Shown: positions 18,110 to 44,800 of the stretch, piece after piece
How the letters are laid out: every line of letters begins with the position of its first letter
Numbering within the stretch: the stretch's first letter is position 1
Source: an uncultured Pseudomonadota bacterium
GTDB lineage: Bacteria > Pseudomonadota > Alphaproteobacteria > Rs-D84
Reading direction: 5' to 3'
Assembly (NCBI GenBank): GCA_947303585.1
Contig: CAMYYT010000002.1
Span: 2,326 to 66,325, forward strand
Length of the DNA: 64,000 nucleotides
The notes under the pieces: generated by a model
What the model saw: the letters and a program-made list of their open reading frames with translations, nothing else
Databases searched by the model: none
Told to the model about the DNA's origin: nothing
Program-made: the position numbers and the translations under genes

Positions 18110-19342
18110 ATGCAAAAAAAGAACATAAGAACTTTATCTTTCGGTTGCCGGCTTAATGCTCTGGAATGCGAAAAAATCTCTCGCATGTTGGCAGACGTGG
18201 TTGATTCAGCAATATTGATTAACACTTGTTCTGTCACAGCAGAAGCAGAGCGCCAATGTGCACAAACATTGCGTCGGTTGTCGCGCGAAAACCCAGATGC
18301 GATTATTTTTGTAACTGGTTGTGGCGCCACACGAAACAGGGCTTTGTTTCAATCTGTGTCACGCGCATTGGTTGTTGATAATACTGAAAAAATGAATTTG
18401 TCAGCGTATGTAAACGCGTTAAAAAGCGCGGATTTTGATTTGTCTTGTTCGAAAATAGAAAAATTCAAAGACAGCGAAGATAAACTGTCTAAGAAATTTA
18501 TTCAGGTCCAAAACGGCTGTAATCATGATTGCACATATTGTGTGACACGTCTTTTGCGCGGAAAAAATATATCTTTCCCATACGAAGATGTTTTAGCAGA
18601 CGTACGTGCGGCAGTTCAAAACGGATTTCATGAAATAGTTTTAACAGGTGTAGATACGGCGTCTTACCTGATTCAGCGCGACGGAAAACCGTTTTTATTG
18701 GCTGATTTATGTGAAAATTTGCTGACAGATGTTCCGGAAATAAAGCATTTGCGTCTGTCGTCTGTTGACCCGGCATCACCCGAAGTTCCAAAGATAATCG
18801 CCCTGATGAATCAAAATTCAAGATTTATGCCACATTTGCATCTTTCGATGCAGTCGGGTTCAGATACAATTTTGCGTGCGATGCGCCGCCGTCATGATTC
18901 AAAAAAATTGATGGATTTGGTAAAATTGGCAAATGGTGCGGTTTCTTCTAGTGCAGATATAATCTGTGGCTTTCCTGGCGAAACTGAAGATTTATTCCAA
19001 GAAACATTGCAAATGGTACACGATATGAATTTGATACATGTCCATGCTTTTCCGTATTCTCCGCGTCCAAATACAGTCGCTGCGACAATGCCAAATCAGG
19101 TTCCGCGTAATATTTCAAAACAGCGCGTTCAACAGATTATAGAAATCGCAAATCAAAACCGTGAAAAGTTTATGCAAAAACAAATCGGAAAAACAGTTTC
19201 TGTCTTGGTGGAACAAAATAATATTGGTCGTACCCCAGATGATATAGATATAAAAATAGTCGGCACCCCAATCAAAGAAAAAACAATCTGTGATGTTACA
19301 ATAACAGGCACAGAAAATAATATGTTTATAGGCATGCTTTAA
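18110..19342 (+). CDS. mtaB: Radical-SAM tRNA methylthiotransferase (MiaB-like, MtaB family)
   Basis: N-terminal MTTase domain (TLSFGCRLNALECE), radical SAM CNHDCTYC, C-terminal TRAM-like region. Confidence 0.7.
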   Translation: MQKKNIRTLSFGCRLNALECEKISRMLADVVDSAILINTCSVTAEAERQCAQTLRRLSRENPDAIIFVTGCGATRNRALFQSVSRALVVDNTEKMNLSAYVNALKSADFDLSCSKIEKFKDSEDKLSKKFIQVQNGCNHDCTYCVTRLLRGKNISFPYEDVLADVRAAVQNGFHEIVLTGVDTASYLIQRDGKPFLLADLCENLLTDVPEIKHLRLSSVDPASPEVPKIIALMNQNSRFMPHLHLSMQSGSDTILRAMRRRHDSKKLMDLVKLANGAVSSSADIICGFPGETEDLFQETLQMVHDMNLIHVHAFPYSPRPNTVAATMPNQVPRNISKQRVQQIIEIANQNREKFMQKQIGKTVSVLVEQNNIGRTPDDIDIKIVGTPIKEKTICDVTITGTENNMFIGML

Positions 19343-20298
19343 ACAACTTCGGTAACAGCGCGCAACGTGCCTTCGCGGGATAATTGGACCACACGAATTT
19401 TCTTTTTCATTTCAGCAATTAAATCTGTCCTGTTATACGCAGGCTGTGTATGTAATATACGATCTGCAAACGCAGCATATGCAGCCTCTGCATTTTCTGC
19501 GTGGATAGTAGTATAAAAATGGTCGTGTCCAGTTCCCAACATTTCCCAAAGAACCGCGGCATTATCAGTTGATATTTCCCCACCAATAATCACGTCAGGA
19601 GTCATACGAACCACTAAATCAAGCAATCTTGCATAATTAAAATCATTGTTTTGTTCTGTTCTTGACAACACGAAATGAACACGATTTTTTTGAGGAACAC
19701 GAATTTCACGGGCGTCTTCAACAGTAATCACACGGCTGTTTTGGTCAATCAAAGTCAACATATGATTAAGAAATGTTGTCTTACCAGTTGATGTCGCTCC
19801 GCTTATCAAAATAGGACTGCCGTCGTTAATTGCAGACATTAATCTGTCGTATGGGTCATCAGGTCGTATCGATTCGCGCGGTTTTACTTTTAACAACTTT
19901 TTGCCGTGTTCAAGATGATAATTGCTAAAACTTGTTTCTTTGACACCACCCCCACGAATATTCAATGCAACACCACCAGTTACATCGCGTTCATCATATT
20001 GAACATTTGGTCCCGCTATGGCAGAAAACCTATGGTTGCCAGGCAAGGTAGCATACACCACAGGGATTCCGTGTATTGGGTCAAAAGGTCTTTCATAGAT
20101 GTTAGCCACAGTATATATCAAATCGACCAAATATTGTTTCGATAAAACTTCGCTGTTATAAGAAACCCAAGGAACCTTGCCACCATTAAGACGCATCCAA
20201 ACTTCGCCTTCGTGATTTATCGCAATTTCTTCTACGAACGAAGGCGAATAAAATTCTTCCAATGGTTTTAGTAAAGATTCAAGAACTACATTTGTCAT
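19339..20298 (-). CDS. virB11: Type IV secretion system ATPase VirB11
   Basis: EEIAINHEGEVW N-domain, Walker A ISGATSTGKTT, His-box region. No other vir genes adjacent. Confidence 0.8.
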   Translation of the reverse strand: MTNVVLESLLKPLEEFYSPSFVEEIAINHEGEVWMRLNGGKVPWVSYNSEVLSKQYLVDLIYTVANIYERPFDPIHGIPVVYATLPGNHRFSAIAGPNVQYDERDVTGGVALNIRGGGVKETSFSNYHLEHGKKLLKVKPRESIRPDDPYDRLMSAINDGSPILISGATSTGKTTFLNHMLTLIDQNSRVITVEDAREIRVPQKNRVHFVLSRTEQNNDFNYARLLDLVVRMTPDVIIGGEISTDNAAVLWEMLGTGHDHFYTTIHAENAEAAYAAFADRILHTQPAYNRTDLIAEMKKKIRVVQLSREGTLRAVTEVV

Positions 20299-24998: not shown

Positions 24999-25065
24999 AT
25001 TCTTGTTTTTTGTTGCCGCGCGAATTGTCGTGCGGTTTTTTTTATTAACTAACACAGGTAAAATC

Positions 25066-25476: not shown

Positions 25477-25493
25477 ACAACAAAAGGAAAATT

Positions 25494-25685
25494 ATGAACA
25501 AAATAATCAAAGGCGGTTATTTACAAAATCGAAAAACTTATGTTGTATCAACAGTTGGTATTGTGTCTGCAATTGGTGCGTATCTGGTGGGCGATGCAGA
25601 TATATTCACAATGTTGCAAACTATATTTACATTGGGTGGTATCTATTTTCTTAAACAAGAATCTTCAACCAAAGGAAAAAAATAA
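25494..25685 (+). CDS. Small two-TM membrane protein (holin-like candidate)
   Basis: RBS AAAAGGAAA. Two hydrophobic helices, basic C-terminus. Immediately downstream of the cell wall hydrolase. Confidence 0.4.
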   Translation: MNKIIKGGYLQNRKTYVVSTVGIVSAIGAYLVGDADIFTMLQTIFTLGGIYFLKQESSTKGKK

Positions 25686-26341
25686 TGGAACAAATTCCAG
25701 AAAAATTTCTAGATGACAAAGGCGAATTAAATACATCGGCTTTGGTTAAATCATATTGCGAACTTGAAAAAAAGATGAGTAATATGATTCCTTTGCCAAA
25801 CGATGAAAGCGACGAAGCAACAAAACAAAAATTTAATCATGCAATTGGTGTGCCTGATAATGCAACAGATTATCCAACGAATCCGTTGTTCGAAGACGAA
25901 TCGGTTCGTGAAAAATTTCATGAAATTGGTTTGACTTCAAAACAAGTTGAACAAATTTATGCAATCGCTGAAGAATTTTTACAACCAACATTAAAAAATT
26001 TATTTCAACTACAAAATCAAACAAATGCGACAAATGAATTGAAAAAATTTTTTGGTGATGAAGAAAAAATGAATGATGCATTACGTGAAATAAATTCGTT
26101 TGGTGAAAAATATTTACCAAAAGATGCGTTTGATGAATTATGTGCTACACCCCAGGGAATCCAAGGCATATACAAGATGATGCAATCTCTAGAACCTGAT
26201 GTTTTAACCAATAAAAACACAACAGAAATTTTAAGTGATGATGTTTTGCGTGATATGATGCGTAATCCAAAATATTGGCGAGATCATGATCCAGAATATG
26301 TAAGAAAAATTGAAAATGGTTTTAAAAAATTATACTCATAA
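25685..26341 (+). CDS. Hypothetical acidic protein (possibly phage scaffold-like)
   Basis: ATG overlaps upstream stop (taATGg). No recognisable catalytic motif. Confidence 0.45.
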   Translation: MEQIPEKFLDDKGELNTSALVKSYCELEKKMSNMIPLPNDESDEATKQKFNHAIGVPDNATDYPTNPLFEDESVREKFHEIGLTSKQVEQIYAIAEEFLQPTLKNLFQLQNQTNATNELKKFFGDEEKMNDALREINSFGEKYLPKDAFDELCATPQGIQGIYKMMQSLEPDVLTNKNTTEILSDDVLRDMMRNPKYWRDHDPEYVRKIENGFKKLYS

Positions 26342-26440
26342 TTAATTTTTATTCTTTACTATTTGTTTTCTTTCGTATAAAATATAAAACAAGAACAAAA
26401 AAAATTTTGTTCTATCCGAAAACATAGAAAGGAGAGAATT

Positions 26441-26734
26441 ATGTTCGGCTTAAAGAAAAAATGTGGTTGCACAAAAACAGCTGCTAAACCAGCTGCTGCA
26501 AAAAAACCAGTTGCTAAAAAAGCACCTGCAAAAAAACCAGCTGCGAAAAAAGTAGCTGCAAAAAAACCAGTTGCAAAAAAACCAGCTGCAAAAAAAGTAG
26601 TTGCAAAAAAACCAGCTGCTAAAAAAGTAGTTGCAAAAAAACCAGTTGCTAAAAAAGCACCTGCAAAAAAACCAGTTGCTAAAAAAGCACCTGCAAAAAA
26701 AACAGCTGCTAAAAAAGTAGTAAAGAAAAAATAA
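26441..26734 (+). CDS. Histone H1-like lysine/alanine-rich nucleoid protein
   Basis: 13 or more AKKPAAKK-type repeats. Strong RBS GAAAGGAGAGAA. Terminator follows. Confidence 0.75.
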
Positions 26735-26756
26735 TAAATAATTAATTGATTATTTG

Positions 26757-26788
26757 TCCCCAAAATCAAAGGTTTTGGGGATTTTTTT
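26757..26788 (+). terminator. Rho-independent terminator
   Basis: CCCCAAAAtcaaaggTTTTGGGG + TTTTTTTT. Confidence 0.7.
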
Positions 26789-27110
26789 TATGATAAATTT
26801 TTCAGTTAGATGAATTATCAAGTCTAACTGAATTTTTTATTGGATAATCCATTTTTGTGGACCCGAATTAAGATTTTGTTTTTTTGGCGCATTTATTTTG
26901 CATAACCATTAATCAAAATTAAGGCTTTTATTTTTAACTTAAACAAAAAGGATTTCTTATGTCTATGTCTGTAGACCAAGTGTTTATAAAACAATTTGAA
27001 GCAGATGTCCATTTGGCATATCAACAGTTTAATATATAACAAGATTATTTTTAAAAATAAAAATTTATTTGTGATCGTATTCAAATTTAATTATTTGCGA
27101 AGATTTATAA

Positions 27111-27248
27111 ATGCTAAACGCCTGCGATACCCAACGAATCAATCTGCGAGAAAGATTACGAGAACTAGATTTTATTCTTTCCCCCCATGGTTCTATGATT
27201 TATATAGGAACACCGCACACAAAAGATACTATATATAAAACAAATTAA
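27111..27248 (+). pseudogene. Remnant of the terminase large-subunit ATPase domain (coupling-motif region)
   Basis: 45-codon ORF ..DFILSPHGSMIYIGTPHTKDTIYKTN resembles T4 gp17 ..KIIITTTPNGLNHFYDIW. The matching C-terminal nuclease domain lies at 30529. Confidence 0.35.
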
Positions 27249-27886
27249 TCTTCGGATGTTAAGAACGTTCGCAATTTGTTAAGAACATCTTTGCCTTGTT
27301 CTCCGAACATTGGTAAAAATGTTTCATATTCTGGCATATCTGCTTGAATTTGGGCGCGATTGCGTTCGGTTAATGTTTCCGATAATAATTCTTTTGCGGA
27401 ATACCAAATTTGATAAGCCTTGTCTGCCCTGATAACATCTTGCCATTTTGCAGACAGTTCAGCATCAGAAGTCAATGCTGCCTTTATATCTCTTGCCCAA
27501 TCGTTGCCAAACTTTTGTACAAAAGGTAATTTTTTTATTGCGATCAAACTTTCTTGTGTCGGTTCAAATTTATCCAAAGCTGCTTTTAGTTTGGAAATTT
27601 CGTCAGCGGTCAAAGAGAAAACCACTTCTTGATCAGACATTGTTCCGCCATAAGGCAATAAATCTTTATCAATAGTATTTATTGGGGTTTTGCCAGAACG
27701 TAAATTATTTATATGAGCGACCAATTTCTTTCCCGTAGGAAGATTTTCAAGTTCTGTTATAATCTGTTCGCTGTTGGCTTCTTCCAAAAATACTTTGTTA
27801 ACAGCAGTCCACCCGCCGTCAATTACGTGTTCTTGGCGGTAAAGGTTTAATAACCGTTGTGCTACTATGTGTGCTTGTTGTGGCAT
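27245..27886 (-). CDS. Hypothetical protein
   Basis: 213-aa ORF, first gene of the minus-strand block inserted between terminase fragments. Confidence 0.45.
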   Translation of the reverse strand: MPQQAHIVAQRLLNLYRQEHVIDGGWTAVNKVFLEEANSEQIITELENLPTGKKLVAHINNLRSGKTPINTIDKDLLPYGGTMSDQEVVFSLTADEISKLKAALDKFEPTQESLIAIKKLPFVQKFGNDWARDIKAALTSDAELSAKWQDVIRADKAYQIWYSAKELLSETLTERNRAQIQADMPEYETFLPMFGEQGKDVLNKLRTFLTSED

Positions 27887-27910
27887 GGTTCTCTCTCCTG
27901 CATTTAACGA

Positions 27911-28918
27911 TTATTGCATGACAATCATAACAACCTTGTGCATTGTTTTGCCAGTAATTTTTTCTTCTGGGTTAGATATATGACCATATATTTTACCACG
28001 AGAATCTTGGCGAACAACGACAATTTGTGCTTCTGTTGTGTCATCGGATTTCATCTTTGAAAAATCTGCATCTATACATACAGCCAAATCACCAACCTTA
28101 GGTTCTATATTAGCATCAACAAAGATGTATGCAGATTCTGGGATAAAACCAGATAATCTTTTAGAATTTGGTATCACGGCATAAACCCCGCTGCGTCCTT
28201 CTAATGCAGCAGGCGCAACAATCATAGTTTCGTCAGATTTCTTTAATTTCAAGCCTTTGTCCAAAGGTTTGCCAAACACAGGAACCAATTTTTTACGCGC
28301 ATTATCATACAATTGCGCGCCATATAAACCGCCGTGTATATCCAACCCGGATACAGGGTTCCCAGGTTCCAATACAGACTTTACGCGTTCTGTGACTTTG
28401 TTTATTTGTTTAGTTAATTCACCAGCATTATACAATTTGGTGATTTCGTCGAACAGTTGCGAAGAAGTATATCCAAAAGCCTTGGCCAAAACATCAATTT
28501 CATCTTCGTAAACTTCGCGTTGTCCGACTTCGATTTTATGGTACACAGACAAAGTCATATTTGCAGCTTTTGCGGCATCTGCAATAGTTTTTTCACAACG
28601 TTGACGTATTTTACGCAACCCAGAACCAAAAATCTTTAAACCGCTATCCTCATTGTCATTCAAACGGCGTTTAATTTCGTTTTGCCAATTTTGAGCAACC
28701 GCATCAGATTCATGAATAAATATGTCTGATAATTTGCATCCCAGTATGGTGCACACATTTAACAGTTGTTTCTGGTTAAGACGGCGAACGCCTTTTTCTA
28801 TCTTGGAAACCGCAGACAAGGATAAATTAGCGCGTCTAGCCAGTTCAGTCATTTTCATCCCTTTCGCAGCACGAATGTTACGAATGTTATTAGGAAAAAT
28901 GATTTCTTCTTGTGCCAT
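27911..28918 (-). CDS. Dual-HTH (XRE-type) transcriptional repressor with C-terminal S24 LexA/CI-like peptidase domain
   Basis: Two HTH_XRE units (MTELARRANLSLSAVSKIEKG.. and IADAAKAANMTLSVYHKIEVG..) then S24-like fold (VPVFGKPLDKG..SGFIPESAYIFVD..GDLAVC..IVVVRQDSRGKIYG). Confidence 0.7.
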   Translation of the reverse strand: MAQEEIIFPNNIRNIRAAKGMKMTELARRANLSLSAVSKIEKGVRRLNQKQLLNVCTILGCKLSDIFIHESDAVAQNWQNEIKRRLNDNEDSGLKIFGSGLRKIRQRCEKTIADAAKAANMTLSVYHKIEVGQREVYEDEIDVLAKAFGYTSSQLFDEITKLYNAGELTKQINKVTERVKSVLEPGNPVSGLDIHGGLYGAQLYDNARKKLVPVFGKPLDKGLKLKKSDETMIVAPAALEGRSGVYAVIPNSKRLSGFIPESAYIFVDANIEPKVGDLAVCIDADFSKMKSDDTTEAQIVVVRQDSRGKIYGHISNPEEKITGKTMHKVVMIVMQ

Positions 28919-28985
28919 AATTGAACTCCTTGAAATCTATGTTGACAAAATCTTAGTCAATTTTTTGAATCTTGGCAAGAAAAAA

Positions 28986-30530
28986 TTATAAAATGTCATC
29001 AGGAATATCATTTATGTCCACCACACCTTGTGTCAAAGTGTCATTCGGTGTGGCAAATTCAGATGTACTTTCAGAATCAGGAGATTGAGGATAATGTTGT
29101 AAATTATCAAATAATGAATATTCACCAAAGAAGCTTAAATGAACGCTTTCTGGTTTGCCATGACGGTTCTTTGCGATAATAACATCTGCTTTGTTTCGGG
29201 CAGCGTCCATACGTTTTTGCCAAGTCTGCATTGCATTATCAGAAGTCAAACCTGACAAACGTTTGTCAGGAGAATGTCCTTCAAGATAATATTCTTCGCG
29301 GTATGTAAACATAACAATATCCGCATCTTGTTCAATAGACCCAGATTCACGTAAATCGGACAAGATTGGGCGTTTATCGTCGCGTTCTTCAACCTTACGA
29401 GAAAGCTGGGACAGAACGACAACAGGCACATCAAGTTCTTTTGCCAAGATTTTAAGCCCGCGGGTAATTTCTGATAATTCTTGAACGCGATTATCGTTGC
29501 GTTTGCCACCAGGAACAGTCATTAACTGTAAATAGTCAATAACGATAAGAGCGATTCCGCCAAATTGACGCGCGATACGGCGTGCACGTGTTTTAACCCC
29601 TGGAACAGACATTTCAGAAGTGTCGTCGATAACAATAGGTACTTTGGACAAAGCATCTGTGTATTGAGACATTTTCATAAAATCTTCATCAGTCAAATTA
29701 CTGCCTTCGCGCATACGGGAAGAAGGTATCTTTGATTGTGATGACAATATACGAGCCGCTAATTGAGGATAGGACATTTCCAAACTAAAGAAAGCAACCG
29801 CTCCTTTGTATTGCTGGTTTGCGCGCCCGTTTAATATTGCGTTAGCGGCATTGAAAGCGATATTAAGCGCCAATGTCGTTTTACCCATAGCGGGACGTCC
29901 AGCAAGAATTATTAAATCAGAACGATGCAAACCGCTGATAGATTTGTCTAAATCATCAAGCCCCGTTGTTAAACCAGATAATTTTCCGTCTGCTTTGTAA
30001 GCGATTTCCGCTTCTTGCAAGGCGCTTTTTAGCGCATCAGCCAATGTTACTACATTGCGTTCGGTTTGCCCAATAGACGCCAAATTAAATAATTTTTGTT
30101 CGGCGGATTCTATTTGGGTGTTCACAGGTTTGTCTAAATCTTCGGTATATGCATCATCAATAATACTTTGTCCCAGATTTATCAAATCACGGCGACGCGC
30201 ATTATCAAAAACAATACGACCATAATGTTCAACATTTACAACCGTAGCCCCTGCCGCAGTTAATTTAGATAAATATTCAACGCCACCAACATTATCCAAA
30301 ATACCTTGCTGTTCAAGATATGTCTTTGCAGTAATTATATCAAAAGGTATTCCAATTGCGAATTGGCGCAGAGCCAATTTATAAATTTCTTGGTGTGCCA
30401 CATGTGAAAAATGTTCGGGTAACAAAAAATCGGATACGGATTCCAATGCACGATTATTAAGTAACACCGCAGCCAGAACAGCTTGTTCTGCTTCTAAATT
30501 CACAGGTAAAGATTTAGGGGTAAAATCCAT
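28986..30530 (-). CDS. dnaB: Replicative DNA helicase DnaB
   Basis: N-terminal DnaB domain (LPVNLEAEQAVLAAVLLNN..), Walker A AGRPAMGKTTLALNIA, RecA-like core, acidic C-tail. Confidence 0.85.
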   Translation of the reverse strand: MDFTPKSLPVNLEAEQAVLAAVLLNNRALESVSDFLLPEHFSHVAHQEIYKLALRQFAIGIPFDIITAKTYLEQQGILDNVGGVEYLSKLTAAGATVVNVEHYGRIVFDNARRRDLINLGQSIIDDAYTEDLDKPVNTQIESAEQKLFNLASIGQTERNVVTLADALKSALQEAEIAYKADGKLSGLTTGLDDLDKSISGLHRSDLIILAGRPAMGKTTLALNIAFNAANAILNGRANQQYKGAVAFFSLEMSYPQLAARILSSQSKIPSSRMREGSNLTDEDFMKMSQYTDALSKVPIVIDDTSEMSVPGVKTRARRIARQFGGIALIVIDYLQLMTVPGGKRNDNRVQELSEITRGLKILAKELDVPVVVLSQLSRKVEERDDKRPILSDLRESGSIEQDADIVMFTYREEYYLEGHSPDKRLSGLTSDNAMQTWQKRMDAARNKADVIIAKNRHGKPESVHLSFFGEYSLFDNLQHYPQSPDSESTSEFATPNDTLTQGVVDINDIPDDIL

Positions 30531-31377
30531 GTCTCTAAGATTAAACGAAAATTTTGATAATTCAACACCTTTTTTAAGCGGGTATAAACAATTAACAATA
30601 CCAATTATGGATAAGGCCGGAAATCCGGCATGGCCAGAAATGTTTCCGCTTGAAAAAATACACGAACTTGAAAAAGTTGTGGGAAATAGACATTTTTCTG
30701 CTCAAATGATGTTGGAATATATCCCAGAAGAGCGTATACATCTTGATCCCGGAGCAATCAGCTTTTATCGCGATGATTTTGACAGGCGTTTATGTCGAAT
30801 CGGTAACCACATTATAACAGGTGTCAGTTTTTATTGGGATCCGTCATCTGGACGACAAAAATCAGATGGCAGCGTCTGTGCGCTGGTTTATCGTGATGAT
30901 AAAAACAGAACAGTATTCGTTCACGATGTTTTGTATATGTCTGTTATGGACGACGATTTATATCCGTTGGCTAATCAATGCGATACAGTTCTAGATTTTA
31001 TGCAAAAACATAACTTGGTAAGAATAGGAATTGAAATAAACGGACTCGGTAATGCTTTACCAGAAATTATCAGAACCAAAGCACAACAAAAACAACTTTC
31101 GATAAACATAGTTCAAATATCAAATCACACTAAAAAAGAAACAAGAATATTAAACGCCATAGAACCAGTTTTGACTACAGGCCATCTTTATATGCACGAA
31201 AAAATCAAAAAAACGATGTTGTTGTCAGAAATGTTGGCATGGACGCCACTTGGTTCCAAAGAACACGATGACGGTCTAGATGCTGTGTCTGGTGCATTGA
31301 CTATGGATACATATCCAATCAGACCGTTGAATCAATATACGAAACAGATTCGTGCAAACACAGAATTTAACATATAA
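30529..31377 (+). pseudogene. Phage terminase large subunit, C-terminal nuclease domain only (T4 gp17-like; N-terminal ATPase domain missing)
   Basis: ..GNRHFSAQMMLEYIP.. then RNaseH-like nuclease region VSFYWDPSSGRQKSDGSVCALV...EHDDGLDAVSGAL aligns with T4 gp17 residues about 330-580. Confidence 0.6.
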
Positions 31378-31393
31378 CCAAAAGGAAAAATAA

Positions 31394-32623
31394 ATGCAAA
31401 AAAATCTTATGCAATTATATAAACGCGCATTAAATGAACGCGAAGTATGGATGAGCAGATGGAAATCAGCTATGCGATATACGATTCCCGCGGACGACGC
31501 AGATATCGCAACACTTTTTGATGCTACTGCGTCAGACGCTGTTGATAATTTGGCTGCGTCTATGTATTCATTGCTGACGCCCCCAGAATCTTTGTGGATA
31601 AATTTAGTCCGTGAAAGTGATTTATCACCAAATGCTGAAATTGCGACATCTGTTTTGCGGGCGCATTTGAATGATTCTAATTTTTATACAAGCATTCATC
31701 AATGTTATATAGATTTAGTAGTTCTTGGGACAGCGTGTTTGTTTATGGCAGAAAATCCGATAGGCTCTTCATCTGCGTTTTCTTTTACTGCAATCCCAAT
31801 GACAGATATCGCTATATTACCAGGTGCAATCTTCCATACAACTTCGTTGCCAGCCTGTGATTTGATGGAAAAATATCCTAATATAACCTTGCCGTCGCAT
31901 ATGAAAGATACAATAAAAAACAATCCCGAAACCCCAATCAGATTAGTTCAATCTTTGATAGGTAAAGATTTTACAGCTTGGATAGATGTAGGTGGTGATT
32001 TTGAAAACAATATTGTAGCGCGTGGAACATTTGAAACCAATCCATATATAATCTTTCGTTGGTCTTTGGTAAGCGGTGAATTATACGGTCGCGGCCCGGT
32101 ATTGCGCGCGCTGCCAGATATAAAAACAGCAAACAAAGTTGTAGAATTAGTTTTGAAAAATGCAACTATCGCAGTTAGCGGAATTTGGCAAGCTGATGAT
32201 GATGGCGTTATTAATTTATCTAATATAAATTTAACACCTGGCGCAATAATACCAAAAGCGGTAGGCAGTTCTGGTTTAACACCGCTAGCAAGTGGCGCTG
32301 ATTTTGATGTGTCGCAAATAGTGTTGCGTGATTTACGAGACAGAATAAGACATACTTTATTGGCAGACCGGCTAGGTCTTTTGTCAGACAAAGAAATGAC
32401 TGCCACAGAAATATTGGCTCGCAATTCTGATATGGTTCGAATTTTGGGGGCAACATATGGACGCCTTTTGCACGAATTTATAAGACCTTTGTGTGAACGC
32501 GGACTTCAAATATTATCTCGTCGTGGATTGATAGACAAAATATCTTTACATAGCGATGCAGAATTAAAGTATATCGCACCAATTGCACAAATGGCGCGTG
32601 AAGAAATGTTAATAGAAGGATAA
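31394..32623 (+). CDS. Phage portal protein
   Basis: Immediately downstream of the terminase fragment. 409 aa with length and composition typical of HK97/GTA-type portals. Assignment by context plus weak similarity. Confidence 0.5.
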   Translation: MQKNLMQLYKRALNEREVWMSRWKSAMRYTIPADDADIATLFDATASDAVDNLAASMYSLLTPPESLWINLVRESDLSPNAEIATSVLRAHLNDSNFYTSIHQCYIDLVVLGTACLFMAENPIGSSSAFSFTAIPMTDIAILPGAIFHTTSLPACDLMEKYPNITLPSHMKDTIKNNPETPIRLVQSLIGKDFTAWIDVGGDFENNIVARGTFETNPYIIFRWSLVSGELYGRGPVLRALPDIKTANKVVELVLKNATIAVSGIWQADDDGVINLSNINLTPGAIIPKAVGSSGLTPLASGADFDVSQIVLRDLRDRIRHTLLADRLGLLSDKEMTATEILARNSDMVRILGATYGRLLHEFIRPLCERGLQILSRRGLIDKISLHSDAELKYIAPIAQMAREEMLIEG

Positions 32624-32628
32624 TTATT

Positions 32629-32829
32629 ATGACTGAAATTGAAAAACAATATGCACGAACTTTCACATGCAATAGCGGTAAACAGGTTTGGGCTCATTTG
32701 CGAGGTTTGACCATAGAACGCGTTATAGGTCCAAATGTATCAGATAATGAATTGCGTTGGTGGGCTGCACAAAATGCGCTGGTGCATCAAATAGAAAAAT
32801 TTATAAAAAGGGGCAATAATCCAACATGA
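32629..32829 (+). CDS. Small hypothetical protein (phage-region)
   Basis: 66-aa ORF 5 nt after the portal stop. Confidence 0.3.
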   Translation: MTEIEKQYARTFTCNSGKQVWAHLRGLTIERVIGPNVSDNELRWWAAQNALVHQIEKFIKRGNNPT

Positions 32830-32866
32830 TATGTATATAGGTTTATGGTAAATTATTGATAAAAAT

Positions 32867-33127
32867 ATGTCAAAACAACAAAGTTTTTTTAATATCATAG
32901 ACATCTTGCGAGACAGCTGGTTTTTGCTAGCTTTTATTGCTGGTCTAATTTATTGGGTTGCCCGTCAAGATTCGTCTTTGACGGAAATAGAACGACAAGA
33001 ACAACGCATTACGGCACTTGAAAACAGAACAACTGTTTTAGAATCTGGTATAGGTCAATTACAATTAAAAATAGATGGAATCAAAGAAGATGTGACTTTG
33101 ATAAAAAGTGCTGTTATAAAAAATTAA
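32867..33127 (+). CDS. Small membrane/coiled-coil protein (phage-region)
   Basis: One TM helix then coiled-coil heptads. Confidence 0.35.
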   Translation: MSKQQSFFNIIDILRDSWFLLAFIAGLIYWVARQDSSLTEIERQEQRITALENRTTVLESGIGQLQLKIDGIKEDVTLIKSAVIKN

Positions 33128-33480
33128 ATAGAATTTTTAGCCCAATATATTTTATGACCACAAACAACAATAACATCAAATCTGGCATCTCCTTTCCATT
33201 GATGTTGAATTAAATAAGTTTCTGCGGCACGACGCAAACGTACTGATTGTATTGGGGTAATTGCTTCCCAGACCGCAGAAATATTTTTGCGATATTTCAC
33301 TTCTACAAAAACGATAGTATTTTTATGTTTTGCGATAATATCTATTTCTGCACGATTTGTATTTTTGCCGGTCACATATCTGCTTTTTAAAATTTTATAT
33401 CCATGTAATCTCAGATACATTCTTGCCAAGAATTCGGAAAACAATCCAGTCTGATAAGATGTTTTTGTTTTAAAAAGCAT
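33124..33480 (-). CDS. yraN: YraN-family (UPF0102) endonuclease
   Basis: GEFLARMYLRLHGYKILKSRY...EIDIIAKHKNTIVFVEVKYR. Confidence 0.75.
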   Translation of the reverse strand: MLFKTKTSYQTGLFSEFLARMYLRLHGYKILKSRYVTGKNTNRAEIDIIAKHKNTIVFVEVKYRKNISAVWEAITPIQSVRLRRAAETYLIQHQWKGDARFDVIVVCGHKIYWAKNSI

Positions 33481-34285
33481 ATGGTTTTGCCTGGAAATTT
33501 TCTTTGGCTTTCAATACGTTTTCAGAAATATCTGTTGTATGTAATCCTTCATCAACCAAGACAAGCTTTCCATAAAAAGCTTGTAACATTGGGGCATATT
33601 CATTTTCTTCGGAAATCCATTTGTCTTCCCCAGAATTAGGTTGACCGTATTTATCAATGACGCCTTGCCAGAAAGCAAGAAGTTTTTTTTCGCGCTGATT
33701 AGAAAATTTACCGTTTGATTCATTATCAACGCCATCTAAATCATCTGCGTCATTTGTGTATTCGACTTTCCATACCACATTGTCAGTAGCATTACTGGTA
33801 AAAAATATATCAACTTTTTCACCAGTAAAATCTCTTTCCAAATGAATTTCGGACACATAAAGCAAGCCACGTTGTTTGGCTAACGAATAAATACATCTTT
33901 CCAGTTTTTCTGGAATAAAAACATTGTTTTGGCGGCATTCGTAATCAAGATTGTATTTCCATTCTTTGTCTATGCCGTAAACAACACTATTTTTCTTGCG
34001 TGGTGCGTAAAGATTAGAACCCGTGAAAAAAAGCTCATTAATTTCATCATAATTCATCCCTAACATTACACCTGCGATATCGAAATGGTTTACATCAACA
34101 AAGCTGCCGTTCGCATCCAAAGAAACTGTTTCTGGAACAGAATAGTCATCTTCATCAGTCACATCTATTTCAGCAAAATTATCAAAATCCAAAGGGTCTG
34201 TTTCATCAGCAAAAGAAGCAATCGACAAAAATGTGCCAAAACAAAAATATACGCACAATAAAAATTTTTTCATTTTTATCACCAT
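33470..34285 (-). CDS. Hypothetical secreted acidic protein (last gene of four-gene envelope operon)
   Basis: Signal peptide MKKFLLCVYFCFGTFLSIASFA. ATGA overlap with upstream gene. Confidence 0.5.
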   Translation of the reverse strand: MVIKMKKFLLCVYFCFGTFLSIASFADETDPLDFDNFAEIDVTDEDDYSVPETVSLDANGSFVDVNHFDIAGVMLGMNYDEINELFFTGSNLYAPRKKNSVVYGIDKEWKYNLDYECRQNNVFIPEKLERCIYSLAKQRGLLYVSEIHLERDFTGEKVDIFFTSNATDNVVWKVEYTNDADDLDGVDNESNGKFSNQREKKLLAFWQGVIDKYGQPNSGEDKWISEENEYAPMLQAFYGKLVLVDEGLHTTDISENVLKAKENFQAKPYAF

Positions 34286-34977
34286 TATTCTTCCTTGTTT
34301 TTTATAGCTTCGTTATTTATATCTAATACATAAAATACAAACAACCCTGCGGGATTGCTGCCCGTTTTCAAATCTTTGACAAGTCTTTCTGCACTAAGTG
34401 TATGATTCTCAGAATCCTTTTTTCGTAATCCTGGTTCAAACACAACTTCCATGAAAATAGTTTTATCTTCTCGCACTGGTTGTGATTCTATCATATTTGG
34501 TTCAAGCCATGTAAGTGTGTGATATTTGACCTTGTAATAACCATTGGTAGTATTGCCATAAGATGCAGTAAAATTTTGATTGGTTATGCTGTCAACGCGC
34601 AGCAAACGCAACATGTTCTGACCAGACATTTCTAATATCAAAGGTTGTTCTTCTGTTAACCATTTTGTTTTTACAGACGAACTTGATTGATTTTCCAGAA
34701 TGTCCCTTTTTGCCAAAGCATTTTTTTCGCCTGGAATAACTTTGAAATATTCGGATAAATATTTTTCTATTAATTTATCGCGCAAGCTATCAGCAGGAAT
34801 AGATTTTATGTCATACACTTGACTAATTCGTTGATCTGGGTTGTTGCCAGTTTGAAAAAAATAAGTTTTGATAGAAGAACGTTCTTTGGCAATATAAATC
34901 AATGCCACCAACACCAACATAGCGCAAATCGTTATCAAAACAATAACCCCAGTAAAAAATGATTTTATTCTATTCAT
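34285..34977 (-). CDS. Bitopic membrane protein with VirB8-like features (N-terminal TM, periplasmic domain, C-terminal NPxG motif)
   Basis: TM helix residues 8-30. C-terminal ..TGSNPAGLFVFYVLD resembles the VirB8/TrbF NPLG motif. Size (230 aa) matches VirB8. Confidence 0.4.
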   Translation of the reverse strand: MNRIKSFFTGVIVLITICAMLVLVALIYIAKERSSIKTYFFQTGNNPDQRISQVYDIKSIPADSLRDKLIEKYLSEYFKVIPGEKNALAKRDILENQSSSSVKTKWLTEEQPLILEMSGQNMLRLLRVDSITNQNFTASYGNTTNGYYKVKYHTLTWLEPNMIESQPVREDKTIFMEVVFEPGLRKKDSENHTLSAERLVKDLKTGSNPAGLFVFYVLDINNEAIKNKEE

Positions 34978-35669
34978 TTTGAAATCCGATATGTATAAAA
35001 TTCGTTAATATAATACCCAAATGTAGCAGGATAAAGCAAAGAATCACGCGCAACAGTTATAAAAAACAAAACCTTAAAACTTTCATTGTTTGAAGTGTTT
35101 ACAGATACAGTGCCACGCCAAAAACTGCCGTTTTCATCAATTTTACCAGGGACAACTTGTGGTCGTTCCGGTTTCCAAAATTCCGCATTTTCAGCTATTT
35201 TTGTTCTATAAACAGGCAACACATTATCAACAAATTCTTGATATAAATTCCTGGATGATTTGCAAGCCAACGCGCATGTTATGTTTATTGGACTAAATAT
35301 CTCAGGTTTGCTACAATCTTCTTTTACTTCGCAATTCTTCCATCTTGCTTCGTTGGTTGCTTCGTTCGTAGATATAGTAAACCAATTAGTGATGTAATCA
35401 TGAACAAGTTTTTCTTGAATAACTTGGTAGCGATTGACTGTTTCTGCTTCTTTATCTGGGTAAGCAATAACTTTCCATTCATTGGTTGTTGGATTAATTG
35501 ATATTAATACAGGGTATTGTTTTGTAAAATGTTGGCAAAACAGGATAAAACCACAAACAACGACAATCATAAAAAAGGTTATTGCTGTCCATATAGACAT
35601 AATACGAGACAGGGCAATTGATTTGCCCGCTCGAAAAGTTTTTATATCAAATCCATTTGGGTAATCCAA
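34974..35669 (-). CDS. Bitopic membrane protein (short cytoplasmic tail, TM, periplasmic domain with 4 Cys); possible second VirB8-like paralog
   Basis: Topology from hydrophobicity. 4-nt overlap with next gene. Confidence 0.4.
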   Translation of the reverse strand: MDYPNGFDIKTFRAGKSIALSRIMSIWTAITFFMIVVVCGFILFCQHFTKQYPVLISINPTTNEWKVIAYPDKEAETVNRYQVIQEKLVHDYITNWFTISTNEATNEARWKNCEVKEDCSKPEIFSPINITCALACKSSRNLYQEFVDNVLPVYRTKIAENAEFWKPERPQVVPGKIDENGSFWRGTVSVNTSNNESFKVLFFITVARDSLLYPATFGYYINEFYTYRISK

Positions 35670-35698
35670 TCAATCCCCCCATGTGTTTATAAAGAAAA

Positions 35699-35854
35699 CT
35701 AGGCCTGATATACCAAAATGCAAGCACAAGGGCTAAGTTTTAATTCGTTATTGTCATAACCAATACTAACAGGTTCGCTGTCGTATATCTGACCACATCC
35801 AGACATCGATAAACCAGCAATCGCCAATGTGCAAATTACAAGAATTTTTTTCAT
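35699..35854 (-). CDS. Small lipoprotein (51 aa; VirB7-like by size, position and lipobox)
   Basis: Strong RBS GAAAGGAGAATAC before ATG. MKKILVICTLAIAGLSMSGC.. lipobox. Not in the ORF track (under 60 aa). Lies 30 nt upstream of the next gene. Confidence 0.45.
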   Translation of the reverse strand: MKKILVICTLAIAGLSMSGCGQIYDSEPVSIGYDNNELKLSPCACILVYQA

Positions 35855-35916
35855 GTATTCTCCTTTCTTTTTCAAAATTATAAGAAAAATTCATCCCCCC
35901 AGTCAAGACAAAACAA

Positions 35917-38196
35917 TCAGAACTGTGTTGCAAAAGACAACAAGAATCTGCGTTCATCATCGTATTTGTTAACTTTTAACGGCCATCCCCATGAAAAGTT
36001 CATAGGTCCCATAGTTGTATTCCAATAAATTCCTATACCCACAGATGTTCGCCAATCTTCATCAATATGAACATTCTGGGTTGTGGTACTTAAATTTTTC
36101 ATTGGCGGTTTACCCAAAATGCCATAGTCTGCAAATACGAAACCTTTGATTTGATATTCATCAGGAATAAATATCGGGAAGTTTAACTGAGTTGACCCAT
36201 TTGTGCGCCACAATCCACCCAAAGAATAAGAACCAAATCTGGAACCAACACCCGCGACATCAAAACCACGCAATGATTCACCACCCAAGAAATAACGATA
36301 CACACGTGGGATATAATCATCGCTGTCCAAAGATTGTAAATAACCAAATTCCCATGAAGATTTCAATTGCCATCTGTCATCAAAGAATTTAAGTAAACCT
36401 GTGATATCCGCACTATATCGCATAAATGTATTTGTTCCACCAAAACCAGTGTACGCAGCGCCAATATTACCAACTATACCAGTGTGCGTATTTTGTTGAA
36501 AATTAGTATTCAAATTGTAATAACGCAAATTTGTCCCCAAAGTATAAAGATTTGATTTATGCCAACCACCCAATTGTAAATCATAGTTTTGATCAAAAGT
36601 GGCAGATAAACGCATAGTTTGTGTCCAATGGTCTGTCAAGCGCCAACCCAATCTGCCCGCTACCATGAAAGAATCACGATCATAACCATAACCCCCAAGA
36701 CTTGAATATTTATATTGTGTATAAGATACATCAACACCACCAGACAGTTCACGATTGAATAAAAATGGTTCTGTAAAACTAAACAAAGCTTGTCTTTGAT
36801 ATTGTGCAATAGAACCTTTGATTTGAACTATTTGTCCGCGTCCCATAAAGTTATTTTCCGTAATTCCCGCATCAACCATAAATCCATTAATAGTAGACCA
36901 ACCCAAACCACCAGATAATTCGCCAGTTGGCTGTTCTTCAACTTTTACATCTAAATTCATCATATTTGCGTCAGCCAATCGCGTAGGAACCATTTGAACA
37001 TCTTTGAAATAACGCGTGTGCATTAAATTTTGACGACCTGTTTCAATCGTTTGTAGTGAAAAAGGGTCTCCTTCGCGCATAGGTAAATGATGTTCAATTA
37101 CATTATCAAAAGTGCGCACATTACCCAACAAGTTTATGCTGTTGATATAAATACGATTAGTCTTTTTAATTTCAAATTTGATGTCCACTGTTCGTGTATC
37201 ATCATGTTTTTCCGTTATCGGTTCAACACTTATAAAAGCATAACCATGGTCTGCAACTTTGCCACGAATTGCATTTATTGTTGCATCTATTTCATCGATG
37301 TTGTAAATGTCTTTTTTAGATATGGTCAAAGCTTTCTTTAATTCTTTGTCAGGCACATCATCAAAAGGATTGATTATAGAAATATCGCCAATTCTGTATT
37401 GTTCGCCTTCGTCCAAGGTATATTTCACAGAATAATATTCGCGTGATTCTGTAAAGTTCCCTTTGACATCAGTTATACGAAAATCAAGAAAACCATTGCG
37501 CATATAGAATTGATTTAACAATTGTTGGTCGTATTGAATTCTGTCTTCGTCATAAACATCGAATTGTGTCATAAAACGCCACCAAGCATGTTCGCGCGAC
37601 AGCAATTCTCCGCGCAAAGTCCGCGAACGAAACTTTTTGTTGTTTTCAAAATCTATATTTTCAATATAAGTAGGATGACCTTCTTTGATTTCATAAACAA
37701 CATTTACGCGATTGTTATCTAAATCAATTTTTTTTGGGTTTATTTTTGTTCCAAAAAAGCCTTTGCGTTGATACAAAGTTAATATGCGTTGAACATCGCC
37801 ACCAATCACAGATTTATCATATGAAGAGCGTTCTTTGGTTTTTATCTCTTTCTTTAAATCATCAGTATCAATTTCATCATTACCTTCGACTGTCACCATG
37901 TTCACAATCGGGGATTCGTCTACTTTGATTTTAAGAATATTACCGCTAAGAGACGCGTTCACAGATGAAAAATATCCGCTTGATTGCAATTTTTTTGCAA
38001 CATCATTAACAGTTTCTGAATTGATATTGTCGCCAACTTTGACTTCGGATAAAATGCGGATAGATTCATCGTCCATACGTTGATTACCGCTTACATCAAT
38101 GCGCGACACCACAGCTGCGTTCGCATTTGCAGAAAGCGCGATTGCGAACATACTTAATAAAGATATAAACCAATTTTTATTCATTGTGTTCTTCAA
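35917..38196 (-). CDS. bamA: Outer membrane protein assembly factor BamA
   Basis: Signal peptide, five POTRA-like repeats, C-terminal 16-strand barrel ending ..FATQF. Confidence 0.9.
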   Translation of the reverse strand: MKNTMNKNWFISLLSMFAIALSANANAAVVSRIDVSGNQRMDDESIRILSEVKVGDNINSETVNDVAKKLQSSGYFSSVNASLSGNILKIKVDESPIVNMVTVEGNDEIDTDDLKKEIKTKERSSYDKSVIGGDVQRILTLYQRKGFFGTKINPKKIDLDNNRVNVVYEIKEGHPTYIENIDFENNKKFRSRTLRGELLSREHAWWRFMTQFDVYDEDRIQYDQQLLNQFYMRNGFLDFRITDVKGNFTESREYYSVKYTLDEGEQYRIGDISIINPFDDVPDKELKKALTISKKDIYNIDEIDATINAIRGKVADHGYAFISVEPITEKHDDTRTVDIKFEIKKTNRIYINSINLLGNVRTFDNVIEHHLPMREGDPFSLQTIETGRQNLMHTRYFKDVQMVPTRLADANMMNLDVKVEEQPTGELSGGLGWSTINGFMVDAGITENNFMGRGQIVQIKGSIAQYQRQALFSFTEPFLFNRELSGGVDVSYTQYKYSSLGGYGYDRDSFMVAGRLGWRLTDHWTQTMRLSATFDQNYDLQLGGWHKSNLYTLGTNLRYYNLNTNFQQNTHTGIVGNIGAAYTGFGGTNTFMRYSADITGLLKFFDDRWQLKSSWEFGYLQSLDSDDYIPRVYRYFLGGESLRGFDVAGVGSRFGSYSLGGLWRTNGSTQLNFPIFIPDEYQIKGFVFADYGILGKPPMKNLSTTTQNVHIDEDWRTSVGIGIYWNTTMGPMNFSWGWPLKVNKYDDERRFLLSFATQF

Positions 38197-41812: not shown

Positions 41813-41838
41813 AAAATCGCCCATTTGGGCGATTTTTT
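41813..41838. terminator. Bidirectional rho-independent terminator
   Basis: AAAATCGCCCAtttgGGCGATTTTTT. Also overlaps the stop of the giant minus-strand gene. Confidence 0.7.
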
Positions 41839-44800
41839 AATTACCAGTTCGTATTTGCCATTTGATTTTATAACCTGTCCGGGCAGTTGCGCTGCTTGGT
41901 ATAGTCAAATGTTCATCATAATAACATTGATTGGTTTCCAGATTATTATTTCCATCATACCAAGTAATGCTGTAAGAATTCGGATTGCAAGGTGGTGCAG
42001 AATTTGGACCATAACTTCCAAACAAAGCGGTTTCGTATTCGCCATTTGAATTTTCTGGTTGGAAAAGAACTTGTATGCACCGTTCTGTGCAAGTTGTCGC
42101 ACAGCTGTTTTGGTCTCCAAAAGCATCCCAATACACCCAATTTGTATCACTGACACTCACTGCAGACGAACCATTAAGATGATATCCGGTCATATTGCAC
42201 CAACATTCTTTGCCAACGCTTAATGTATTAAATGTTCCATTGGTTTTCGGTTCAAACAAATCACCAGATGTAGAATTGCATGACGAACGTCCTTGGATTT
42301 TTGTTCCATTACTGTACACCAATTCAAAAGTTCCTTTGTTCAAACTCGTTGCATCGCCACCAAAGAATTCACCCGTTCCGCTTTGGGTTGAACTATCATT
42401 AGATTTAAATTTGGTTGCAGACAAATTCAAATTTCTAGATGCGTTTATGTAATTAACCAACGGACCATCTGACCAGGGGGTTGTTGCAGTATAACCAGCA
42501 TTGCAGGTAAATGAAGATATAGCACATGCGCCGATTGATTCTGTTTGGGCAACTGTTCCTGGATCGTATATTCTGGTTGCGGCAGTACTGTTTGCATATG
42601 TCACATTCGCACCACGCACAGGATTTATTACCGAACATAAAAGTGTCGCAGGAGATCTGTAGCAGAAAGCAACATCCCTGCTGCCAGCGTCAGAATATGG
42701 GAATTCGCTTGGGCAATCAGATAAACCTTGGGCAAAACTTACTTTTTCCCAAGTTCCGCCAGGGCACCAATGGTTTTGGGGACATGTTGCACACACTGTT
42801 GCATTTGCCGGTAAATATTCACCAGGTGCGCAAGTATACGTTGGTACCGGTGCACCACAAGATTTATTCATCCCAAATGAACCAAATTCGGGTGCTAAGG
42901 CAAGCTGCATGGCACATGCGTTTGCACATTTTTTTTCACAGATACTTATATCAATAAAGTCAGTTTTGAATAGTCTTTCTGCGGGATTTACGGATACTGT
43001 ATTGCCGCTGCCAATTTTATAACTTGTTAAATCGCAATTACAATCATATTTTCCGTTGGCATTAACAGCACACGAAGCGGTTCCGGTAATATCCAATTCA
43101 TTCCAATATACTAACCTGAATGTTCCATTTGTCATGCCGGTTGAATCTCCATAATTCCCGTTAGCACCGCTGCTGTTGTCACTACTGCCATCTATTGCAC
43201 GGTAATAAATATTATGGTTAGAAGTCGAGCTTGGCATACCATACAATGGCGATTCATAATTTGCCAAAGGTCCATCAGTTCCAACTAAAACTTCGCCTGC
43301 ATTACTGCAAGTTGCACCAGTCACCGCACAACCACCAAATGGGGTAACCACACTTCCGCCACCATAATAGTTTCTTTGTGTCACAGGACTGTTCGCATAA
43401 GATACAGATGTCGTATTTAATATTTTCACAAGCGTCGAACAGTCTACGCCTGTTTTATCGTAATAACAAAATGTAACATCTGTCGTTCCTGCATCAGAAG
43501 AAGGATGGTCATCAGGACAAGATTCTCTGCCGTAAGGTTTGTTGGCTGAGATATTGCTGGCAGGTACATCGGTAAAGCCTGGACAATAATAACCAGCCTC
43601 ACAAAGTGTACAAGTTGTTGAATTTGCCGGAAAATAATACCCGGGATCGCAAGAATAGGTTTGTTCTACGCATGCCATCTGTTCACCGTATTCCCCAATA
43701 ATATTGGTTCTGACCGTAGTGTTAGACATAAAATAGGCAACGCATTGTTCTGCGCAATTATCTGTGCAAGTAGCCGGGGACCGTATTGGTACATACACAG
43801 AATTCGCATCGTTAACAGACGTGCTGCCATTACCAATGTCATAACCCGTCATTTGACACCAGCAATACGTATCTGTGCCACCGGCTTTTGCCCCCCCAGA
43901 ATTACCAGATTTAGTTTTGGGAGTGGCTTCTTTATATTCACCAGCGCTGGTACCAGCTGTTGAATTACATGTGGCATCAAGATATATTTGGGTACCATCA
44001 CTCCACGTGATAACGGCAGTTCCATCTGTCATACCGGTTGAATCGCCAAATCCGTTTGCAACACCACTGTTTGCGCCACTGTTACCACTTGCTGCCCTAT
44101 AAAGAGTGCTACTCTTTGAAATACTGTGTGCCTGGTTGACATAGTTTGCCAATGGGCCATTTGATGATGGTTCTTTGACATATCCAGTATCACAAGACAA
44201 ACTGATAATTTCACATGCGCCAATATCTTCCGTTTCTCGACCGGCGTCACTATAAGTGATAGAGCCACTTGATGAATTTGCATAAGTCGCTGTCCCGTTT
44301 GATACAGGATTTATTTTGGAACAAGAATAACTTCCGCTGGTCGAATAACATTGTTGTAGAAAACTTGAACCTGCGTCAGAGTTTGGATATTTAACATTAC
44401 ACGCGATTTTGCCTTGATCATCACTGTCGTTATATGGATAAATTCCACCCGGACAATAGTAGTTTGCCGGACATCCGATGCAGGATGTTGCGTTTTTCGG
44501 TAAATATTGCCCCGCAGGACAAATTATTTGCATAGTTGCCGAACATTCGCCAGAACTGGCCGTCCCAGGTAAAGAATATGGTGTAGAAGTCGGACAAGGG
44601 TACAAACCTTGGTCATCGTCTTCGTCCAGTTCAACATCTGTGACACCTGGGCAATAATAATCTGATGGACAAAGCGCGCAATCTTCGGAATCAGCAGGTA
44701 AATAATAACCTGCATCACAACTGTATGTGAATCCTTGGGGACCTTTGGCACCGTATTTAAAATTACCACCATTACAAGATTTCGCCTTTGGGCAAGATTG

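Follow-up and report, generated by a model that had tools for sequence, protein, structure and literature searches.

What do the genes directly behind bamA encode in the order Rs-D84, and to which cellular machinery could they belong? We addressed this question in a 64,000-nucleotide (nt) stretch of the genome of an uncultured alphaproteobacterium (assembly GCA_947303585.1, contig CAMYYT010000002.1, positions 2,326 to 66,325 of the forward strand; hereafter the window), in which four minus-strand genes, here called g1 to g4 in the order of transcription, fill positions 33470-35854. The DNA comes from Candidatus Enterousia, which belongs to the order Rs-D84. Its genomes, 0.75-1.0 Mb in size, are devoid of most pathways of biosynthesis and respiration and of the standard transporters, and a dependence on partner cells has been proposed (PMC12306168). 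An earlier reading of the same DNA, made without database searches (hereafter the sequence-only reading), had proposed that the four genes encode either components of a type IV secretion system (T4SS) or a periplasmic system tied to BamA. We find that g1 and g2 are related in sequence, and g3 in predicted fold, to the VirB7-position lipoprotein and the VirB8 proteins of VirB-type systems, that the product of g4 belongs to a separate family, and that a VirB11-family ATPase is encoded on the same strand, 14-15 kb from the operon.

VirB7- and VirB8-like products and a solitary VirB11 homolog

The first gene, g1 (35854..35699, minus strand), encodes 51 amino acids (aa), including a lipobox that reads LSMSG↓C; 7 nt before its ATG lies the ribosome-binding site (RBS) AAAGGAG. 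Across species, the lipobox follows the consensus G[ILMF][AS]G↓C and the mature peptide of 31 residues hardly varies. The product is predicted to be a lipoprotein of the outer-membrane type. No family in Pfam, NCBIfam or PHROG matches it, the VirB7 and TrbH models included. A g1 profile retrieves a small open reading frame (ORF) directly upstream of virB8 in three plasmid-borne P-type conjugative T4SS clusters, namely those of Microvirga sp. VF16 pMVF16-3 (NZ_CP069357.1; 45.7 bits), the Erythrobacter aureus YH-07 plasmid (NZ_CP031358.1; 24.1 bits) and Sphingosinicella sp. BN140058 p1 (NZ_CP035502.1; 24.0 bits), and in all three clusters it matches this lipoprotein in the VirB7 position and nothing else. 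The motif N.LK.[ST]PCAC is common to g1 and the three plasmid lipoproteins, with the plasmid proteins reading PN and g1 reading NN. Because the plasmid clusters are ordered B6-[lipoprotein]-B8, the counterpart of g1 holds the VirB7 position; g1 thus has what is expected of a VirB7-type lipoprotein, that is, small size, a lipobox and homologs beside virB8 in T4SS clusters. On these profile matches, we class g1 as a putative VirB7-position lipoprotein rather than a canonical VirB7.

The plasmid lipoprotein ORFs (L025, 3479-3655; L112, ~11940-12144; L113, 11935-12141) are annotated as 'hypothetical', and the one in Sphingosinicella has no annotation at all. They have no Pfam match and form an unnamed VirB7-position family that occurs in 3 of 72,556 plasmids. 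The lipoprotein with the N.LK.[ST]PCAC motif is a newly defined family without any database model.

The second gene, g2 (35669..34974, minus strand; 231 aa from a TTG start), has one hydrophobic segment, a transmembrane (TM) helix at about residues 26-46, and so shows the bitopic topology of VirB8 and TrbF proteins. At the family level, 29 of 62 g2 orthologs match PF04335 (VirB8) at E<=1, and one of them, P0233, exceeds the gathering score of 23.2 with 29.2 bits. A g2 profile scores 32.9, 28.2 and 15.6 bits against the VirB8 proteins of the three plasmid clusters; in the reverse search, the plasmid VirB8 proteins retrieve g2 orthologs only, among 7816 ORFs. Furthermore, hhalign aligns g2 with four VirB8 sequences at a probability of 79% (E 1.6e-5), the N-terminus, the TM helix and the first periplasmic segment pairing with VirB8 residues 20-130. 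The C-terminal half contains a Cys-rich insert and ends in YPATFGYY..F..YR, loosely like NPxG...YR, and four periplasmic Cys are invariant. Taken together, the profile evidence points to g2 as a divergent member of the VirB8 family, predicted to be a bitopic inner-membrane protein.

The third gene, g3 (34977..34285, minus strand; 230 aa), likewise has a single TM helix, at about residues 8-30. Its AlphaFold2 model (mean predicted local distance difference test score, pLDDT, of 73, and ~90 in the core at residues ~100-130) places after this helix a helix-helix-four-strand domain of NTF2-like type, i.e., an NTF2-like periplasmic domain on a bitopic protein. The best Foldseek match of the model in PDB is CagV (6iqt; E 8e-4, template-modelling score 0.72 on the target), and the other matches include Brucella VirB8, TraE, TrwG, PrgL, TraM, DotI and TcpC. 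The C-terminus of g3, SNPAGLFVFYVLD, carries the motif [ND]-P-x-G-L-F-x-F-x-V, which precedes the last strand; the Pro is invariant across orthologs and the Gly is present in most sequences. The NPxG-type motif noticed in the sequence-only reading is real. In sequence the link is weak: PF04335 is matched by 2 of 29 g3 orthologs (best E 1.4e-4), and hhalign pairs g3 with VirB8 at a probability of 33%. A profile-profile comparison of g2 with g3 gave no significant paralogy signal beyond one helix. We infer from the fold, the position and the weak VirB8 matches that g3 is probably a second, more divergent VirB8-like paralog that arose by an old duplication. The pairing of a small lipoprotein with VirB8-like bitopic proteins, for which VirB7 and VirB8 had been suggested, is therefore borne out by the profile matches of g1 and g2 and by the fold of g3.

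VirB8 could be recognised here only because family-wide scans and profiles were used. Single-sequence scans of g1 to g4 against Pfam, NCBIfam and PHROG yielded nothing useful, and PDB sequence searches with g2, g3 and g4, whether as single sequences or as profiles, returned chance matches only (antibodies and a fucosyltransferase).

The ATPase gene (19339..20298, minus strand), described before as an orphan virB11 15 kb away, does encode a VirB11 homolog, whose alignment with TIGR02788 spans the whole protein and scores 148 bits, short of the curated cut-off of 250 bits; TIGR02788 is its best-scoring NCBIfam family. It shares 38-41% identity with the VirB11 proteins encoded in the three plasmid clusters with the g1-like lipoprotein, the match to the Microvirga pMVF16-3 ATPase (40.7%) being the one that led to that cluster, as against ~25-29% with ordinary VirB11 proteins (29% with that of Shinella, compared directly). 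Across 80 metagenome loci (L027-L106) the protein is 86-95% identical. It is constrained at least as strongly as the housekeeping proteins with which it was compared, and the window protein has no exact-sequence record. When VirB2-B11 and VirD4 of four plasmid clusters were searched by tblastn and phmmer against the window and the related loci, only g1, g2 and VirB11 were recovered.

The three plasmids thus resemble the window in several respects at once: they have a homologous lipoprotein directly upstream of virB8, and they carry both the VirB8 closest to g2 and the VirB11 closest to the window ATPase. They differ in layout. The plasmid genes are contiguous, in the order B2-B3-B4-B5-B6-lipoprotein-B8-B9-B10-B11-D4, with a MobA/MobL relaxase annotated nearby in two of the three clusters, whereas the Enterousia genes read lipoprotein-B8-B8'-unrelated periplasmic protein, are chromosomal and fixed behind bamA, are far more divergent than the plasmid genes, and have B11 15 kb off.

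Two further systems invite comparison. The rvh T4SS of Rickettsiales combines a reduced alphaproteobacterial genome with T4SS genes dispersed among several chromosomal sites, duplicated and divergent VirB8 paralogs and a small adjacent VirB7; there, the linkage of virB8 to virB9-virB10-virB11-virD4 is preserved, and standard profiles recognise the virB8 genes. In Enterousia, by contrast, virB11 is solitary, no virB9 or virB10 follows the VirB8-like genes, and these genes mostly escape Pfam. Adjacent paralogous bitopic VirB8-like NTF2 proteins also occur as DotI/DotJ (IcmL/IcmM) in the type IVB system of Legionella and as TraM in R64, and the structures matched by the g3 model include DotI (3wz4/3wz5) and TraM (3wz3). 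However, the sequence evidence of g1, g2 and VirB11 points to type IVA (VirB-like) systems, and no other dot/icm gene was seen; in addition, DotJ lacks a periplasmic domain, whereas both g2 and g3 are full length.

Layout, conservation and the fourth gene

Upstream of g1 lies bamA (38196..35917, minus strand; Pfam POTRA x5 and Omp85), and the unit ends with yraN (33480..33124, minus strand), an endonuclease-like UPF0102 gene (Pfam UPF0102, E 3e-20). The sequence-only reading described the layout largely as we find it. All four minus-strand ORFs exist at the sizes it gave, including the 51-aa lipoprotein with its strong RBS, and the Pfam calls of the neighbours agree that the unit directly follows bamA without the usual skp-lpxD-fabZ, none of which occurs after bamA in the window. 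As for the junctions, g2 and g3 do overlap by ATGA at 34974-34977, but the junction of g3 and g4 at 34285, also given as ATGA, is a 1-nt overlap reading TAATG. The last gene, g4 (34285..33470, minus strand), indeed overlaps yraN, by 11 nt; it encodes 271 aa, or 267 aa from the ATG at 34273, with a signal peptide and a mature isoelectric point (pI) of 4.3. We do not take these overlaps as evidence of shared function; they reflect genome compaction, given that g4 overlaps even yraN, an unrelated gene, in like manner.

Relatives of the locus were collected by a scan with the g4 alignment, one genome per species, which gave 19 loci, all in metagenome-assembled genomes (MAGs) from rumen or gut labelled Candidatus Enterousia or uncultured Alphaproteobacteria. 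The order rseP-bamA-g1-g2-g3-g4-yraN is kept in 24 of 24 related loci (19 distinct Enterousia species), and in the same 24 loci a T7-like gene set and then dnaB follow downstream of yraN. Identity to the window protein across the loci is 73-100% for g1, 37-51% for g2, 32-44% for g3, 59-70% for g4 and 79-90% for BamA. The ratio of nonsynonymous to synonymous substitution rates (dN/dS) is ~0.1 for g2, g3 and g4 in pairs with unsaturated dS, indicating that these are functional genes. Given this ratio and the constant order in 24 loci, the arrangement is not a product of chance.

The spacer between bamA and g1 measures 62 nt and holds a predicted sigma-70-like promoter (35877..35906, minus strand; TTGACT-18 nt-TATAAT) that agrees with the consensus at 11 of 12 positions. 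The pattern TTGAC-N18-TATA(A/C)T and the AAAGGAG RBS are kept in 24 of 24 loci, despite g2 and g3 identities of 32-51%. Because a promoter-like element is conserved in this spacer, g1 to g4 and yraN probably form a transcription unit of their own rather than the tail of a bamA operon.

A side observation concerns the pace at which g2 and g3 (window 34285-35669) have changed. Relative to its nearest relatives, L006 and L009, the window is 94% identical in rseP, 90% in bamA and 98-100% in g1, as against 47% in g2 and 44% in g3, and dN amounts to 0.44-0.50 for g2/g3 versus 0.07 for bamA. Between L006 and L009, g2 and g3 differ by 15% only. Such divergent alleles could reflect episodic fast evolution or replacement via recombination, with dS being saturated.

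The product of g4 had been considered a possible VirB9/CagX-like component, a candidate that we rejected. There is no match to PF03524 (VirB9/CagX/TrbG) or any other Pfam family, a g4 profile does not match VirB9 of the four plasmid clusters, and the model (overall pLDDT 62, core 80-93) has an alpha/beta core, unlike the all-beta two-domain VirB9 model, and no significant structural neighbour. A HMMER search of 1.84 billion representatives found 146 relatives (P0254-P0399), many of them 320-520 aa long and combining an N-terminal low-complexity part with a C-terminal g4 domain; ahead of the domain there is often a long low-complexity stretch that is acidic or proline-rich. The domain itself spans ~200 aa and always ends in aromatic-x-Phe; its C-terminal Phe and two of its Cys are fully or almost fully invariant. 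All named relatives are hypothetical proteins of uncultured Alphaproteobacteria. In the loci inspected (L107-L111, L114 and L115), their neighbours vary, i.e., tatABC; lptF/G and asmA; chpT-like and che genes; suf genes; rplM. No g1-g3-like genes occur near g4 relatives at the loci outside Enterousia, although one of the stand-alone relatives is fairly close to g4 (278 bits). Because its relatives stand alone elsewhere, g4 appears to have a function separate from that of g1 to g3, and it would have joined the T4SS-derived genes only in Enterousia. On these search results, g4 represents an unnamed, putatively periplasmic family restricted to uncultured Alphaproteobacteria, and the domain with the invariant C-terminal Phe is a newly defined family without a database model.

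Dispersed secretion system, reused remnant or neither

How the pieces might work together can be set out as follows. We consider it somewhat better than an even guess that g1 to g3 and VirB11 are pieces of a rare VirB-type T4SS whose gene cluster is dispersed in the genome, with the rest of the system encoded elsewhere. They would descend from a rare P-type (VirB/Trb-like) subtype of T4SS found on plasmids of Sphingomonadales and Hyphomicrobiales. The ancestral virB cluster may have been broken up in Candidatus Enterousia during genome reduction, as in Rickettsiales, with the B7-B8-B8' piece coming to lie behind bamA under its own promoter. In the assembled apparatus, g2 and g3 would be anchored in the inner membrane and would form, with their NTF2-like domains, a periplasmic scaffold like the 'arches' of the R388 structure, while the g1 lipoprotein would anchor the outer-membrane side and VirB11 would act at the cytoplasmic face or base. 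The products of g4 and yraN would be passengers on the same transcript. A host with a reduced genome and a dependence on partners might use such a dispersed T4SS to interact with other cells. The assembly into a working T4SS, and the presence of VirB4, VirB6, VirB9, VirB10 and VirD4 elsewhere in the genome, are inferred from the pieces at hand.

Several observations weigh against this proposal. No VirB4, VirB6, VirB9, VirB10 or VirD4 occurs in the 64-kb window (~7% of the genome), as judged by Pfam scans of essentially all ORFs of at least 110 aa and by phmmer searches with VirB2-B11 and VirD4 against ORFs of at least 40 aa; nor does any of the five occur in ~1.3 Mb of related loci, all of which cover the same two regions. 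VirB9, the usual partner of VirB7, is missing from its expected position after the VirB8-like genes, and g1 does not have the canonical VirB7 motif P[ILV]NK. VirB11 is solitary in 81 of 81 copies, standing beside no other T4SS gene, and the same is true of a distant low-GC (28%) alphaproteobacterium whose VirB11 is 54% identical (L109, 4082-5047). Taken singly, the window sequence of g2 has no Pfam match at E<=1, and that of g3 reaches no Pfam threshold. The link between g3 and VirB8 leans mainly on a model of moderate confidence, and the fold by itself is not specific, since ARC6 and PARC6 fit the g3 model about equally well. Like g3, these plastid-division proteins are bitopic and have an NTF2-like domain, which in their case lies in the intermembrane space; they are eukaryotic or cyanobacterial and 5-8% identical to g3, and the genomic context gives the comparison no support, so we treat the likeness as one of shared fold only. 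Finally, the genomic paper on Enterousia (PMC12306168) makes no mention of secretion systems, and the literature searched contained no report of a T4SS in Rs-D84. Another study (PMC4027160) names the VirB4-family ATPase as the one ubiquitous T4SS protein.

The same absences can be read differently, namely as the mark of a T4SS remnant put to new use. VirB4, VirB6, VirB9, VirB10 and VirD4 would then have been lost, and g1 to g3, VirB11 and g4, the last in place of VirB9, would form a new envelope complex with a function other than classical secretion, e.g., cell-cell attachment or uptake from a partner cell. We regard this as possible but rather doubtful. It accords with the lack of any other T4SS gene near either locus in ~105 loci and in the window, with the position of g4, which corresponds exactly to that of virB9 in the plasmid clusters, with its translational coupling to g3, and with the observation that g1 (73-100%) and g4 (59-70%) are better conserved than g2 and g3 and both have conserved Cys pairs that could form disulfides. 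It also accords with the retention of the genes at dN/dS ~0.1 despite extreme genome reduction. Yet the loci cover only two small regions of the genome, and in Alphaproteobacteria with reduced genomes it is usual for T4SS genes to be scattered; moreover, related lineages have g4 relatives without g1-g3 neighbours, and the coupling that joins g4 to g3 also joins it to the unrelated yraN. To our knowledge, no functional system consisting of VirB8 and VirB11 only has been described, which counts against a remnant as well. A dispersed but complete T4SS is the reading that we prefer. The bolder proposition, that Enterousia has no complete T4SS and that the lipoprotein, the two VirB8-like proteins, VirB11 and g4, as a minimal set retained under strong selection, form an envelope-spanning machine of T4SS descent and of a kind so far unknown, we think unlikely. 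If true, such a machine would perhaps let transporter-poor cells attach to a partner or draw metabolites from it.

Two explanations do without a secretion system altogether. The position of the unit, directly downstream of bamA in 24 of 24 loci and at the usual site of skp-lpxD-fabZ, raised the idea of an outer-membrane biogenesis module linked to BamA, in which the four proteins replace Skp and other periplasmic factors; the invariant aromatic-x-Phe C-terminus of g4 recalls the C-terminal signal of outer-membrane proteins, and one g4 relative lies near lptF/G and asmA. We consider such a module very improbable. The whole 20-kb region is syntenic within one genus, which makes adjacency little informative, and outside that genus relatives of g1 and g2 occur in T4SS clusters, while those of g4 adjoin varied housekeeping genes and never bamA. 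We found no match to Skp/OmpH, BamB-E or SurA among the products, no significant structural match and no linkage to bamA beyond the one genus. In addition, g4 is acidic whereas Skp is a basic protein. Because the unit has its own conserved promoter-like element and no relatives beside bamA outside the genus, there is no evidence for the functional tie to BamA that the sequence-only reading had offered as its alternative.

Least probable of all, to the point of being hardly credible, is that g1 to g4 are part of the neighbouring T7-like phage element, as lysis genes of the spanin type or exclusion genes, or else decaying relics. The conserved T7-like gene set (portal, terminase nuclease, scaffold-like and endolysin-like genes) begins ~0.3 kb beyond yraN, and phage spanins, too, consist of a small lipoprotein together with a bitopic protein. 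However, none of g1 to g4 has a PHROG match, and the ~10-kb proviral calls in IMG/VR, with the portal ~0.2 kb from one end, appear to end before yraN and the operon; it is on these absent matches and proviral boundaries that we rejected a spanin or phage origin. The operon is also read in the direction of the phage genes, from which yraN separates it, and g2 and g3 are NTF2-like or VirB8-like proteins rather than coiled-coil spanins. Decay is excluded by intact ORFs in 24 loci together with dN/dS of ~0.1.

Neighbouring genes and the biology of Candidatus Enterousia

The T7-like genes of the window span 25003-33127 and comprise an endolysin-like gene (25003-25476), a scaffold-like gene (25685-26341), a terminase nuclease (30529-31377), a portal (31394-32623), a Bbp19-like gene (32629-32829) and an 86-aa ORF (32867-33127). 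They lie among housekeeping genes, dnaB and a gene of the biotin/lipoate-protein ligase family, at the same site in L001-L024. The portal is 88-94% identical between species, above BamA or DnaB, and the 'terminase' consists of the C-terminal nuclease domain only (positions 469-703 of the 760-position PHROG profile). IMG/VR holds many ~10-kb proviral calls with portals at 73-93% identity and distant ones at 44-47%. The set looks like a domesticated element derived from a podovirus, perhaps one that resembles a gene transfer agent.

Between frr and a SIMPL-domain gene, a 1994-aa ORF (41837-47821, minus strand) has no informative domain match, only a short DUF7631 stretch and a weak motif of the MiiA surface protein; a counterpart of 2254 aa occupies the same place in L004. 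Its product may be a giant surface or effector-like protein. Elsewhere in the window, the ORF at 20953-21273 (plus strand) shares 47% identity over 91 aa with a section of the trigger factor of a related MAG (L114, 10154-11455), and could be a fragment of tig or a frameshifted tig, beside a divergent 198-aa ORF at 20327-20923.

As kinds of parts, VirB8, the lipoprotein of the VirB7 position and VirB11 are known. What is new is their occurrence in Rs-D84, the B7-B8-B8' arrangement behind bamA that includes a foreign gene in fourth place, a VirB11 that is solitary and extremely conserved, and two families without a database model. The finding raises the question of whether Enterousia has a T4SS that is dispersed but complete or a remnant that is being reused, and its interest would grow considerably if complete genomes turned out to be without the remaining T4SS components. 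For this widespread lineage of gut and rumen, the T4SS-derived genes, which are under strong purifying selection, represent a concrete candidate for the machinery of interaction with partner cells.

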